Positions 2,566-5,352 of a stretch of 5,352 nt of DNA are shown here, piece after piece. The stretch comes from a virus. A model generated the notes under the pieces. The model was not told the origin of the DNA and did not search any database. It worked only from the letters and a program-made list of their open reading frames with translations. Numbering within the stretch: position 1 is the first letter of the stretch; every line of letters begins with the position of its first letter. The position numbers and the translations under genes were made by a program. The stretch covers positions 1-5,352 of IMG/VR virus record IMGVR_UViG_3300020045_002924, one strand, 5' to 3'.

Positions 2566-3453
2566 ATGGGGGCAGTAGAACAATTAGGAATGCAACTAGG
2601 AGGTCAAGTAATGCAACAAGTAGGCTACGGACTAGGAGAAGCAACAGGCTACAACAAAGCAGTAGCAAATGACCAATTAGAGCAACAAGACAAGCTAGGA
2701 GCAATCCAGCAAAAATACGCATTCGAAGGAATGGACAAAGCATATGATATGAACAGTCCAGAAAACAACGTAAGAAGGCTAAAAGAAGCAGGATTAAATC
2801 CAGCAATGATGTATGGAGGAAGTGGTAGCGGAGGAAGCTCAGTAAACGCACCACAAGCACAAGGCGGACACGCAAGCGATGAAGCAGCAAGAAAGCAAAA
2901 TGATATACAAACTCAAGGAATGGCCATGCAAATGGCAAAACTAAGGAGTGAAATAGACCTAAATGATAGTGTAACAGAAAGAAACAGAAAAGAAGCCGGA
3001 CTAAGTACAGAAAGAACAACAACTGAAAAAGAAATGAGACAACCCTCAAAAGAAAAAACAATACAAGAGGGAGCAAACAAATACCTTGAAAACAAGGAAA
3101 AAACTTGGAAAATGACAGGAAATAACAATGAATGGCAATACAACGGTGGTGAAAAAGGAATGGAAGTAAACGTAAGCGGACAGGGATTTATAGCACAAGA
3201 AGCAATAAATAATATACTTGAAAGCATAGCAAGACAAGGCAACGCAAATGCACAAGCATTGCTAACTAACGAAAAAGCAAAAGGATACTTCCAAGAACTA
3301 GTAAATGCAACAAAACACGCAAATGCGGCAGAGATTGGAGCACTAGCACACAAACTGAGTACAGAATGGAATACAGGTGAAATGACAAATTGGAAAACTT
3401 GGGCAGAACTAGCAGCACTAGCAGCGGGAAGCATAAGTAAAATAATAAAATAA
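2566..3453 (+). CDS. VP2: Microviridae minor capsid / DNA pilot protein (VP2, H-like), 295 aa
   Basis: It has a Q/G/A-rich low-complexity N-terminus, an 'RRLKEAGLNPAMMYGG' block (AGLNP at nt 2788..2802) that resembles a motif I recall from microvirus VP2, a Gly/Ser linker GGSGSGGSS (nt 2815..2841) and long charged helical stretches. Its position between the capsid gene and Rep fits. Confidence 0.8.
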   Translation: MGAVEQLGMQLGGQVMQQVGYGLGEATGYNKAVANDQLEQQDKLGAIQQKYAFEGMDKAYDMNSPENNVRRLKEAGLNPAMMYGGSGSGGSSVNAPQAQGGHASDEAARKQNDIQTQGMAMQMAKLRSEIDLNDSVTERNRKEAGLSTERTTTEKEMRQPSKEKTIQEGANKYLENKEKTWKMTGNNNEWQYNGGEKGMEVNVSGQGFIAQEAINNILESIARQGNANAQALLTNEKAKGYFQELVNATKHANAAEIGALAHKLSTEWNTGEMTNWKTWAELAALAAGSISKIIK

Positions 3454-3456
3454 AAA

Positions 3457-3498
3457 ATGGCACGGTTTGGATTCCTTCGGAATGCCATGCCGTGCCAT
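3457..3498. other. Strong GC-rich imperfect hairpin in the VP2-Rep intergenic region
   Basis: ATGGCACGG (3457..3465) pairs with CCGTGCCAT (3490..3498), giving a 9-bp outer stem. ATTCC (3471..3475) pairs with GGAAT (3479..3483) around loop TTC. GGT/ACC-type pairs are also possible in between. TGCCAT occurs twice (3483..3488 and 3493..3498), which allows alternative pairing. The hairpin starts 3 nt after the VP2 stop. A-runs flank it on both sides, so there is no downstream U-tract for + transcripts. Confidence 0.7.
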
Positions 3499-3545
3499 AA
3501 ATGTAAAAAAAAGTATACATAATAAGAATGAACAACTATTTAACA

Positions 3546-3562
3546 GGTCGGAAATACCGACC
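3546..3562. other. Second GC-rich hairpin (GGTCGG-AAATA-CCGACC), 32 nt upstream of the Rep start
   Basis: A 6-bp perfect stem with a 5-nt loop, read directly from the sequence. It is conspicuous in an AT-rich intergenic region. Confidence 0.6.
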
Positions 3563-3593
3563 GATTAAATATTGTTCAGTAAAAAGATAAAAT

Positions 3594-4562
3594 ATGTGCC
3601 TATATCCGAAGTTAATAAAAAATAGAAAATATATAGCAAATAAAAAAAATGGAGGGAACGTACCTGAAATAAAGGACAGCAGAACCGAGATTGTACCAAT
3701 CGGATGCGGGAAGTGTATAGAATGCATGAAGCAAAAAAAAAGAGAATGGCAGGTAAGAATGAATGAAGAAATTAGAAATAATAAAGAAGGTAACTACGTA
3801 ACACTGACATTCAGTGAAGAAAGTATAATAGAATTAAGTAAAGATGTGGAAATAAAAAGTCTAAGAAAAGATCTAGACAATGAGATAGCAACACTAGCAG
3901 TGAGAAGATTCCTCGAGAGATGGAGAAAAAAATATAAAACAAGTGTAAGACACTGGTTAGTAACAGAATTAGGGCATAATAATACAGAAAGAATACATAT
4001 GCATGGAATAATATTTAATAAAAATAATGAAGAAATAGAAAAAATATGGAAATATGGACACGTTTGGTTCGGTGAATGGGTTAACGAACAAACAATAAAT
4101 TATATAGTAAAATACATAAATAAAATAGATCAAGATCATAAAGGGTACACAAGTAAAATATTATGCAGCAAAGGCATAGGAAGTAACTATATGAAAAGAA
4201 TAGATAGTAAAATAAACAAGTACAACGGAGAAGAAACAAAAGAATACTATAAAACTAAAACAGGAAGTAAATTAAGTCTACCAAAGTACTATAGAAATAA
4301 AATATATACAGATGAAGAAAGGGAAGATTTATGGATAAATCTACTAAATAAAGAAGAAAGATATGTAGGCGGTGAATACATAGATGTAAGTATAAATGAT
4401 GATGAATATAACAAAGCATTAGAATACTACAGAGAAAAAAATAAAAGATTAGGCTATGGAGATGATAGCAAACAATGGAGTAAAGAAAACTATCAACAAG
4501 AAAGAGAAAAATTAAGAGGTTTAAAGAATTATATAAATTCTAAAAGAAATAAACAAGTATAA
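3594..4562 (+). CDS. VP4: Replication initiation protein (VP4 / gpA-like HUH rolling-circle endonuclease), 322 aa
   Basis: RCR motif 1 is 'YVTLTF' (nt 3795..3812). The motif 2 HUH is 'RIHMHGIIF' (HMH at nt 3996..4004). Motif 3, the two-tyrosine 'YIVKYINK' (nt 4101..4124), resembles the phiX174 gpA active-site YxxKYxxK pattern. The N-terminus has 'MCLYP' plus a 'GCGKCIEC' cysteine cluster. Confidence 0.93.
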   Translation: MCLYPKLIKNRKYIANKKNGGNVPEIKDSRTEIVPIGCGKCIECMKQKKREWQVRMNEEIRNNKEGNYVTLTFSEESIIELSKDVEIKSLRKDLDNEIATLAVRRFLERWRKKYKTSVRHWLVTELGHNNTERIHMHGIIFNKNNEEIEKIWKYGHVWFGEWVNEQTINYIVKYINKIDQDHKGYTSKILCSKGIGSNYMKRIDSKINKYNGEETKEYYKTKTGSKLSLPKYYRNKIYTDEEREDLWINLLNKEERYVGGEYIDVSINDDEYNKALEYYREKNKRLGYGDDSKQWSKENYQQEREKLRGLKNYINSKRNKQV

Positions 4563-4574
4563 TAATAAAAATAT

Positions 4575-4582
4575 TATATTTG
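4575..4582 (+). promoter_or_regulatory. Match to the Bacteroidetes-type -7 promoter box consensus TAnnTTTG (TATATTTG), 24 nt upstream of the peptidase ATG
   Basis: The motif was read directly in the 43-nt Rep-peptidase spacer and overlaps an 8-bp palindrome, TTTGCAAA (4579..4586). No clear -33 TTTG partner was seen. The same 8-mer also occurs inside VP1 (620..627), so a chance match is plausible. Confidence 0.25.
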
Positions 4583-4605: not shown

Positions 4606-4932
4606 ATGAAAAGAAAAAATTCAAGTGTTAATCTAGAAAGATTAAACAAAGAAATGAAAGTTGCAATGGTAAAAACCGAAAATGCATGCAAGGCAATAGA
4701 AGGTAAAAAGTATGAAATAACGATTACAAGTGCAAAAGATGGAAAGCATAAGATTAATAGTAAACACTACACAGGTGATGCAATAGACATTAGAACTAGA
4801 GATATGAAATATCCAAGCGCATGTACAATAAGAATTAAAATAGAAATTGGAGACGATTACGATGTAATAAACGAAGGTGATCATATACATATAGAATACG
4901 ATCCAAAAACAAATAAAAGTTGGAAAAAATAA
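4606..4932 (+). CDS. Small LAS-family (peptidase M15 / VanY / hedgehog-fold) zinc peptidase-like protein, 108 aa; candidate peptidoglycan hydrolase (endolysin)
   Basis: 'ITSAKDG...NSKHYTGDAIDIR' fits the S-x-H-x-x-G-x-A-x-D zinc-ligand motif (His54 at nt 4765..4767, Asp61 at nt 4786..4788). 'GDHIHIEYD' fits the C-terminal H-x-H motif (nt 4882..4890). The ~35-residue spacing and the minimal size are consistent with a bare catalytic domain. No signal peptide or TM segment is present. Confidence 0.72.
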   Translation: MKRKNSSVNLERLNKEMKVAMVKTENACKAIEGKKYEITITSAKDGKHKINSKHYTGDAIDIRTRDMKYPSACTIRIKIEIGDDYDVINEGDHIHIEYDPKTNKSWKK

Positions 4933-4962
4933 ACTAAATATCCTAGAAGGGAGGTGTATAAA

Positions 4963-5067
4963 ATGGAAAAAACAGAAATTATTCAAATAGTAGCAAATTT
5001 CATAGTGTTTATAATAGGCTTATTAATTAAAAGCCCAATAAAGAAAAAAAATGGAATGGAAAACTAA
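4963..5067 (+). CDS. 34-aa single-pass membrane peptide (MEKTEIIQIVANFIVFIIGLLIKSPIKKKNGMEN); candidate holin-like or lysis-accessory protein
   Basis: Translated manually, because it is below the ORF-track cutoff. It has a 17-residue uninterrupted hydrophobic core (I6-I22) and a Lys-rich C-tail. It is preceded by the only strong Shine-Dalgarno sequence in the genome (GGGAGGTG, 4948..4955, 7 nt before the ATG). It starts 30 nt after the peptidase stop. Confidence 0.5.
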   Translation: MEKTEIIQIVANFIVFIIGLLIKSPIKKKNGMEN

Positions 5068-5224
5068 AGTACAATTAGTAGACATAGATACAGGAGAAAT
5101 CCTGTATCAAAAAGACTTAATAAATTACGTATTAATAAATAAAGAAAAAAAAACAGATTATGGAATCAAAGAAATCAATTATGTTAAACTCTATCGGAGA
5201 GTCTACAGAAGTATATTCGACTGA
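5051..5224 (+). CDS. 57-aa hypothetical protein (MEWKTKVQLVDIDTGEILYQKDLINYVLINKEKKTDYGIKEINYVKLYRRVYRSIFD)
   Basis: Translated manually. Its ATG lies within the last 17 nt of the 34-aa ORF, at the end of an A8 run. Without it, 5068..5159 would be non-coding in a compact genome. No family was recognised. Confidence 0.4.
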   Translation: MEWKTKVQLVDIDTGEILYQKDLINYVLINKEKKTDYGIKEINYVKLYRRVYRSIFD

Positions 5225-5352
5225 ATTAGTACAGCAAATAGAGATAGAAAATTCTCCTTTTCACATGGTAAAAGAAGAAGGAAAACAGGGCTTTATAGCC
5301 CTTGGACAATATCGAGTAAGTGAAAATCTATTCGATAAAGTAGAAGAAGTAC
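5160..5352 (+). CDS. 5' portion of the junction-spanning hypothetical protein, ~91 aa from ATG 5160 or 84 aa from ATG 5181. It continues into 1..204 on the circle and is truncated here by the window end.
   Basis: The frame is open from 5139. ATGs lie at 5160 and 5181 (MESKKSIMLNSIGESTEVYSTELVQQIEIENSPFH...). It reads through the repeat boundary at 5231/5232 without a stop and terminates at TAA 202..204, overlapping the VP1 start. Confidence 0.55.
   Translation, partial: MESKKSIMLNSIGESTEVYSTELVQQIEIENSPFHMVKEEGKQGFIALGQYRVSENLFDKVEEV
5232..5352. repeat. Right copy of the exact 121-nt terminal redundancy (identical to 1..121)
   Basis: Direct comparison with 1..121 found no mismatches. Confidence 0.95.

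Follow-up and report, generated by a model that had tools for sequence, protein, structure and literature searches.

The 5,352-nt stretch of viral DNA analysed here, IMG/VR record IMGVR_UViG_3300020045_002924 (the window), holds a circular microvirus genome in full: 5231 nt are followed by an exact repeat of the first 121 nt (positions 1-121 equal positions 5232-5352). Every gene in it lies on the + strand. We focus on a 34-codon gene for a peptide with a single transmembrane (TM) helix, the mini-TM gene, which follows the gene of a putative endolysin and probably takes part in host lysis. The features at this locus are the following (aa, amino acids; ORF, open reading frame):

4606-4932, + strand: 108-aa signal-less zinc peptidase of the LAS / Hedgehog type (M15-like), a putative endolysin, assigned from invariant residues, PDB matches and an AlphaFold2 model.
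4949-4956, + strand: Shine-Dalgarno (SD) sequence GGGAGGTG, 6 nt 5' of the mini-TM ATG.
4963-5067, + strand: mini-TM gene of 34 codons and a stop; divergent within family A (see below), to which it is assigned from a profile match and its TM helix.
4978-5028, + strand: codons of the TM helix.
5029-5064, + strand: codons of the C-terminal tail.
5051-5224, + strand: 57-aa ORF with a 'VDIDTGE' motif and a basic C-terminus, conserved in the clade and lying outside the proposed lysis pair.

The frame from ATG 4963 to TAA 5067 encodes the 34-aa peptide MEKTEIIQIVANFIVFIIGLLIKSPIKKKNGMEN, whose residues 6-22 (IIQIVANFIVFIIGLLI) have a mean Kyte-Doolittle hydropathy of 2.79 and include the polar or small residues Q8, N12 and G19. 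In the AlphaFold2 model, residues 3-23 form a single helix followed by a disordered tail, and the tail itself, KSPIKKKNGMEN, is basic and lysine-rich. Since the C-terminal tail carries a net charge of +3 and the N-terminal tail one of -1, the peptide is predicted to adopt an N-out/C-in topology with the lysine tail in the cytoplasm. The coordinates, the hydropathy and the modelled helix agree with the first-pass annotation, made from the sequence alone, which had picked out a 34-aa single-TM ORF starting 30 nt past the end of the peptidase gene; its description of this ORF as unannotated holds for the gene track supplied to it, but the ORF exists as called protein P0057 in a JGI/IMG-derived collection. 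The window peptide is the only member of its 90% cluster and has no close relative. The ORF is the sole intergenic TM ORF in the window; none of 20,000 shuffles of the 135-nt region gave an ATG-initiated ORF that has 29 aa or more and a TM segment of this kind, and among 135-nt stretches of genome composition such an ORF arose at a frequency of 1e-4.

Scanning loci that encode homologues of the peptidase (loci and contigs compared are given L-numbers) revealed a family of peptides, family A, with a short acidic N-tail, one TM helix, an F..GL[FL]I..P.K motif and a lysine-rich tail, in whose alignment F16, G19, L20, P25 and K27 are invariant. The window peptide belongs to this family: against a profile built without it, it scores 20.4 bits, with an E of 1.3e-4 in a set of 8153 six-frame ORFs; the E of the next ORF, which is unrelated, is 0.22, and 0 of 2000 shuffles reach the score of the window peptide. 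Family A genes lie directly 3' of a LAS peptidase in three microvirus-size contigs (L020, L022 and L023), at the end of a 49.8-kb contig (L017), and after the peptidase in four GenBank microviruses from human saliva and vaginal samples, in which the gene is a hypothetical protein in one record and unannotated in the rest. A profile search of 5.8 billion proteins, led by the alignment of a 58-aa relative, returned 20 family A clusters, and an exhaustive search of 1.84 billion representatives gave only 13 clusters (50% identity) at E <=1e-3, arguing that the family is small. When phage records were searched with the 58-aa relative, microviruses alone were matched; the window peptide itself had no tblastn match among 50,697 phage records, nor did it match any entry in Pfam, PHROGs or NCBIfam.

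The first-pass annotation had proposed synteny and substitution counts as a check on conservation, and both came out in favour of the gene: family A is kept beside the peptidase, and divergence among the relatives is mostly synonymous, with 10 synonymous changes against 1 non-synonymous between L022 and L114 and typically 4 against 0 within the 34-aa group, which argues for purifying selection on the relatives. A ratio of non-synonymous to synonymous rates (dN/dS) for L020 versus L017 was discarded because the ungapped comparison was out of register. Collectively, the window-independent profile match, the selection in relatives, the well-spaced SD and a chance rate of at most 1e-4 make it nearly certain that ORF 4963-5067 is a real gene. 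The contrary view, a chance ORF in an AT-rich intergenic spacer with no gene at all, draws on the very short frame and on the lack of a curated-family match and of a close relative; it is strongly disfavoured by the four observations just named, and we regard it as scarcely tenable.

Some family A members reach 57-60 aa: in them the same mature part is preceded by a fused Sec-type signal peptide with x-Y-A at its end, which argues independently that the N-terminus of family A faces the periplasm. Database names for the family diverge. Relatives DAK63207.1 and DAX91796.1 are labelled 'holin' in NCBI nr, labels with no documented experimental basis, and the Prevotella pallens copies WP_311147916.1, WP_276669795.1 and WP_314924473.1 are named 'LPXTG cell wall anchor domain-containing protein' by the Prokaryotic Genome Annotation Pipeline (PGAP). 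We rejected the LPXTG anchor (TIGR01167), as no member contains an LPXTG motif and the best relative reaches 15.8 bits against 15.9, a score that comes from the helix and lysine tail; the naming is very likely a systematic misannotation. The peptides of L111, L110 and L033/35, considered as family A, do not score with the family profile and are separate types of the same architecture. A 142-aa 'fusion' of peptidase and mini-TM peptide (P0118, L147 436-903) was dismissed as a gene-calling artefact in which a TAG stop is read as sense; the in-frame spacer of L147, TAG AAA GGA GGT AAA AAC ATG, is the SD region.

The mini-TM gene is further set apart by its SD. In the window's clade, defined by VP1 proteins 48-58% identical, 13 of 16 mini-TM genes have an extended SD (at least 7 nt of complementarity to the anti-SD; mostly GAAAGGAGGT, 4-8 nt before the ATG) versus 2 of 105 other genes in the same genomes, and one of these two is the gene directly after the peptidase in L110. 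The ribosome-binding site of L140, AAAGGAGGTGTATTTTATGGAA, is near-identical to that of the window. The DxDTGE ORF, the clade counterpart of the 57-aa ORF, itself carries a strong SD in L110 and L052. The other window genes start behind SD-less leaders, the peptidase gene is never preceded by an SD, and family A genes of Prevotella microviruses have A/T-rich leaders with no SD. The first-pass annotation had called the mini-TM SD the only one of consensus strength in the genome; it is the sole SD before a gene start, but a second AGGAGGT lies at 2598-2604 within VP2, 6 nt before the in-frame internal ATG 2611 (Met16 of VP2), which may be an alternative or the true VP2 start, or a coding coincidence. 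Its further suggestion, that the odd SD hints at horizontal transfer of the module, does not survive the comparison: the contrast of 13/16 with 2/105 extends over unrelated mini-TM types, and both the peptidase and the Prevotella family A genes do without an SD. This distribution argues for a maintained, gene-specific signal. We found no RNA structure sequestering the mini-TM SD (z-score 0.9). A lambda-like dual start at GTG 4954 (MYKM...) was also rejected, as it lies inside the SD and is not conserved; in L085 the GTG is followed by TAA, and in L140 the extension reads MYFM with no added charge.

The host of the window phage is likely a member of the Bacteroidia, given that a 73-kb Dysgonomonas scaffold contains an integrated full-length relative of VP1 (50% identity), a further VP1 relative lies on a contig binned as Bacteroides, family A members are found on genome contigs of Prevotella pallens and P. 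bivia, i.e., in prophages, and the other window genes have SD-less leaders. Bacteroidia ribosomes disregard SD sequences except when bS21 is missing from them; for F. johnsoniae, a strong SD is reported on one gene, rpsU (PMC9976891, PMC13000453). It is a speculative and rather improbable reading that the phage makes use of this and routes translation of its lysis trigger through the minority of bS21-free ribosomes, which would give a translational lysis timer or host-state sensor on what would be the smallest class of holin seen so far (29-35 aa, one helix).

The peptide is recurrently linked to wall enzymes. In more than 15 other microviruses, Prevotella prophages among them, a family A gene comes right after that of the peptidase, and adjacency of a TM peptide and an enzyme recurs in more than 20 other loci. 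When IMG/VR was searched from the peptide side with a degenerate DNA pattern, a LAS peptidase stood immediately upstream in 10 of 11 family A loci, while the 76 clade genomes without a LAS peptidase gave no significant family A match. The closest peptidase-homologue contigs, two genome-collection loci and the clade loci show a fixed slot in the clade, with the order Rep, (enzyme), (mini-TM), DxDTGE ORF, ~95-aa ORF, VP1. The following pairs were found in it:

Short LAS peptidase and family A: the window, L141 and L147.
Short LAS peptidase and family B (basic N-tail, INW..LL.VIKVV.G..AG.Q): L001, L098, L142 and L145/146.
Short LAS peptidase and family C (46-50 aa): L143/144 and L036.
Peptidase_M15_3 (PF08291, E 1e-11) and family A or an A-like peptide: L140 and L033/35.
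DUF5675 and family B: L070.

In the window's clade, four wall-enzyme types (short LAS, M15_3, DUF5675 and a further annotated peptidase) are combined with TM peptides of 29-50 aa and of both orientations, which fall into at least five unrelated types; families B and C have a charge topology opposite to that of family A and no detectable relation to it. DUF5675 is described as a C82-like candidate lysin (bioRxiv 10.64898/2026.04.11.717860). None of the wall enzymes has a signal sequence. Furthermore, the distant microviruses MG945328 and MG945336 share a 766-nt block at 76% identity, the recombinant region of Kirchberger 2022, which spans yet a different peptidase gene together with the greater part of a conserved TM ORF of 29-30 aa that overlaps it. 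The mosaic in the slot and this shared block indicate that enzyme and mini-TM gene move as a pair and are reshuffled by recombination as lysis-cassette modules are; a modular mosaic of this kind is typical of lysis cassettes. The Dysgonomonas prophage L139 has a further clade wall-enzyme type placed elsewhere in the genome, an Amidase_2 gene (3511-3936, E 2e-16) just before VP1, and a 47-aa TM ORF (7408-7551) after VP2.

In the peptidase of the window, residues H48, H54-x6-D61, R63, H93-x-H95, E97 and D99 are invariant over 39 homologues. The protein matches the N-domains of Sonic and Desert hedgehog in the PDB (E 2e-4), and its AlphaFold2 model (pLDDT 91) has Shh-N as the top fold match (probability 1.0, TM-score 0.6). 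The H-x6-D and H-x-H zinc motifs on a Hedgehog/DD-peptidase fold place it in the LAS/peptidase M15 clan. It stays under the Pfam thresholds (HH_signal 20.4 bits versus a cut-off of 22.1; no Peptidase_M15_3 match); some homologues carry PF08291 or PF01085, and one, with PF08291, is named a D-Ala-D-Ala carboxypeptidase family metallohydrolase. In agreement with the first-pass annotation, we find no export signal: the N-terminus is not hydrophobic, with a highest 19-residue hydropathy of only 0.2 and a mean of -0.85 over the first 30 residues. On tailed-phage contigs, homologues of the peptidase are followed by a two-TM ORF and then by Rz/Rz1-like spanins (L002, phrog_1275, E 2e-10; L007), the endolysin position of a classical cassette, and by this gene context the enzyme is a putative lysin. 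Its distribution is patchy, as 3 of 80 IMG/VR relatives found by VP1 carry a LAS peptidase. This patchiness and the tailed-phage homologues fit horizontal acquisition, which Roux 2012 had already put forward; the SD is no sign of foreign origin. The closest homologue of the peptidase (58% identity) is encoded in the small elements L118-L120, where a DUF5675 gene comes directly 3' of the peptidase; they also have a G2P-type Rep and a 206-aa ORF whose product is similar to the DUF6266 protein of L116. The called genes of L118-L120 have no Phage_F capsid match on record, and these elements may be a different group of single-stranded DNA (ssDNA) phages with the same lysin.

A lysis-associated role of the mini-TM peptide is, in our view, probable, and the best single explanation, to which we lean with modest confidence, is that it acts like a holin and lets the cytoplasmic peptidase reach the wall. 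ORF 4963-5067 would be translated as a 34-residue single-pass inner-membrane peptide with a periplasmic N-terminus, forming an accessory two-gene lysis module with the upstream peptidase. The peptidase would accumulate folded in the cytoplasm, and the peptide would accumulate in the membrane and oligomerise via the Q8/N12/G19 face of its helix and the F..GL motif; at a critical level it would breach or depolarise the membrane, upon which the 12.5-kDa enzyme would reach the wall and cut peptidoglycan cross-links. Here we infer the topology, the oligomerisation, the hole formation and the dependence of the enzyme on the peptide. A membrane lesion would be needed because no enzyme carries a signal sequence and the window offers no other intergenic TM ORF. 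Like a holin, the peptide is small, has one TM helix and a charged hydrophilic C-terminus (+3), and adjoins an endolysin-type gene without an export signal of its own; the dual-start motif, common though not universal among holins, is absent from the window. Single-gene lysis, which dispenses with a phage muralytic enzyme, does not describe the window with its LAS peptidase upstream, though it would describe L117 and L085, and the peptidase has no N-terminal signal-anchor-release (SAR) domain of the kind that defines pinholin/SAR-endolysin systems. The miniature holin-endolysin pair put forward in the first-pass annotation is supported in part, by the conserved gene, its adjacency to the enzyme, the signal-less enzyme and the cassette-like shuffling; the holin activity itself stays putative, and L117, L085 and L087 break the coupling.

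Several observations weigh against the holin-like role. L117, complete and circular (30-nt terminal overlap), has a signal-peptide-bearing family A gene after VP1 and no peptidase; in L085, an SD-led family C gene follows Rep directly and there is no enzyme; L087 has the peptidase but lacks a mini-TM gene; and in L110 the TM peptide is not adjacent to the peptidase but two genes off. Both genes are missing from most clade members, which marks the module as accessory, and the coupling of enzyme and peptide is not obligatory. The window peptide has no significant similarity to curated holin families, and only 1 of 19 relatives touches PF23987 Phage_holin_10, with 19.6 bits versus a cut-off of 27 (E 1e-3). 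We know of no precedent for a folded 12.5-kDa enzyme passing through a hole made of single 17-residue helices, and the window has no spanin equivalent, with a host presumed to be Gram-negative. A match of 1 of the 19 relatives to PF16935 Hol-Tox is weaker still (12.4 bits versus 23.3, E 0.14). In L136 (90-115), a 5.8-kb contig with non-viral-looking ends, only the last six peptidase codons (EYDPH*) stand 5' of an intact family A gene; a prophage junction or an internal deletion of the peptidase gene may account for this.

The genomes with a peptide and no enzyme keep a rival reading alive, in which the peptide is a membrane toxin or single-gene lysis protein of the kind of phiX174 E, phage M Lys or type I toxins. 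It would kill or lyse cells by itself, by blocking a lipid-II pathway step or by collapsing the membrane, and the peptidase would merely speed wall breakdown. Such a peptide would account for the complete L117 and for L085, in which no wall enzyme is detectable; its 29-35 aa match the single-gene lysis proteins of small phages rather than holins, and the strictly conserved F..GL..P.K could be a target-binding surface. We consider it unlikely all the same, as the peptide adjoins signal-less muralytic enzymes in most genomes, a cytoplasmic enzyme is pointless unless the membrane is breached, and the presence of at least five unrelated TM types, in both orientations, in one slot is ill-suited to one specific host target. 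Somewhat less likely again is that the peptide acts in the membrane outside lysis, for instance by excluding superinfection, by anchoring replication or assembly, or by regulating the DxDTGE and ~95-aa proteins, and that its gene happens to occupy a permissive slot between Rep and VP1. The site between Rep and the DxDTGE ORF is indeed a general accessory-gene site in the clade, the peptide lies beside VP1 in L110 and L117, and the window gene overlaps the next, 57-aa ORF by 17 nt. However, Prevotella-type microviruses have a different gene order (VP2 ... peptidase, peptide, Rep) and no DxDTGE ORF, and the peptide still comes directly after the peptidase; the 766-nt block transferred peptidase and TM ORF together; and none of the 76 LAS-less clade genomes has a significant family A match. 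An anchoring or regulating function towards the downstream ORFs, the alternative given in the first-pass annotation, is disfavoured because the sole recurrent neighbour across lineages is the upstream enzyme. Action at the outer membrane or in the periplasm, as a spanin or disruptin equivalent, would answer to the absence of spanin genes in a phage whose Gram-negative host presumably requires outer-membrane disruption, and to the signal peptides of some relatives, but it is very improbable for a peptide with a periplasmic part of only 5-10 residues and no lipobox cysteine, whose mature form consists of a hydrophobic TM helix and a lysine tail in the cytoplasm.

The remaining genes of the window are the following:

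204-2159, + strand: VP1 (Phage_F).
Between VP1 and the VP2-like gene in listing order, + strand: 105-aa ORF.
2566-3453, + strand: VP2-like pilot protein.
3594-4562, + strand: Rep.
5160-5352 continuing 1-204, + strand: 91-aa ORF spanning the circular junction (MESKKS...ENSPFHMV...WDLIIKVALIMISAMKGKE).

The 57-aa 'VDIDTGE' ORF has no family match, and its homologues stand directly 3' of the mini-TM gene in L001, L036, L098, L070, L033/35, L085 and L140-L145. The 91-aa ORF was missed by the ORF lister because it spans the junction; its homologues (~90-105 aa) always lie just 5' of VP1 in the clade, as in L001 (3583-3873), L036 (674-952) and L098 (949-1248). Three intergenic hairpins, at 2493-2544, 3457-3498 and 3529-3578, may act as terminators or belong to the replication origin; a T/A run comes after the first, whose core GGTACGCATG is found again upstream of VP2 in L139 and L140. 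A Bacteroidetes-type promoter motif, TAnnTTTG, lies 24 nt 5' of the peptidase start (4575-4582); the promoter reading was dropped, as the motif is not enriched in the genome (7 observed versus 8.6 expected), and a sigma-70 promoter scan stayed at background level. Prevotella-type (Alpavirinae-like) microviruses have, besides family A, a second conserved TM ORF of 36-40 aa right after VP2 (L020 2448-2570, L023 870-992, L113 947-1069, L115 947-1057 and L112 835-954), which could be a second lysis or membrane component.

Characterised holins have roughly 60-220 aa and one to four TM domains. The pair described here resembles cassettes of the lambda S/R type in that a small membrane protein with a charged C-tail stands beside a signal-less muralytic enzyme, in the modular shuffling of the two, and in that homologues of the window peptidase occur in tailed-phage cassettes of enzyme, TM protein and Rz/Rz1. 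It differs from them in its 29-35 aa and one TM helix, in having no relation to a holin family and no spanins, and in its 5.2-kb ssDNA genome. Pinholin S21 68 of phage 21 is active as one helix in N-out/C-in orientation, which has a face of small residues and a basic C-tail; its N-terminal Ala/Gly-rich helix is dispensable. The endolysins that partner pinholins are of the SAR type and have been exported by the time of triggering. Family A is likewise found as a bare helix, as in the TMD1-deleted form of S21 68, or with an Ala/Gly/Ser-rich hydrophobic N-extension; however, the window enzyme has neither SAR domain nor signal, the N-extension of the relatives looks cleavable (x-Y-A), and there is no homology. 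With phiX174 E, phage M Lys and MS2 L the peptide shares its tiny size, its single TM segment and a very small single-stranded genome, whereas those proteins act without a phage muralytic enzyme, and E is overprinted, while the mini-TM peptide has its own intergenic gene beside a peptidase. PF23987 Phage_holin_10 (Pam3 gp28) and PF16935 Hol-Tox are likewise very short hydrophobic holin-like families (34-52 positions), but the window peptide matches neither, so that membership is unsupported.

In microviruses, phiX174 E is the paradigm of host lysis (Roux 2012, PMC3394797). The same study describes M15_3 peptidases in microviruses as horizontally acquired putative endolysins, with an ORF of unknown function beside 5 of 11, and Kirchberger 2022 (PMC9239249) treats peptidases as lysis-associated accessory genes and reports a ~700-nt recombinant region with a peptidase. 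The window enzyme is the same kind of horizontally acquired putative endolysin as the M15_3 peptidases of Alpavirinae and Gokushovirinae, yet a shorter LAS variant under the M15_3 and HH_signal thresholds. A TM partner is not described in Roux 2012, Kirchberger 2022 or PMC11499846, and the first two propose no holin. Prior knowledge is limited to the peptidase itself and to the automatic 'holin' labels on two relatives. The mini-TM gene is unannotated in most GenBank microvirus records, and PGAP mislabels its prophage copies as LPXTG anchors.

Some microviruses outside the phiX174 group have been credited since 2012 with a putative endolysin that lacks a route across the membrane. The mini-TM family provides a concrete, widespread and very small candidate partner for it, with at least five sequence types accompanying four enzyme types. 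If the holin-like role is true, the minimum size of a holin would fall to a single helix of ~30 residues, even ssDNA phages of 5 kb would exchange two-gene lysis cassettes, and compact pairs of peptide and lysin active on Bacteroidota such as Prevotella and Bacteroides would be at hand. The gene-specific SD, in hosts that ignore SD sequences, is a separate lead into regulation by specialised ribosomes.

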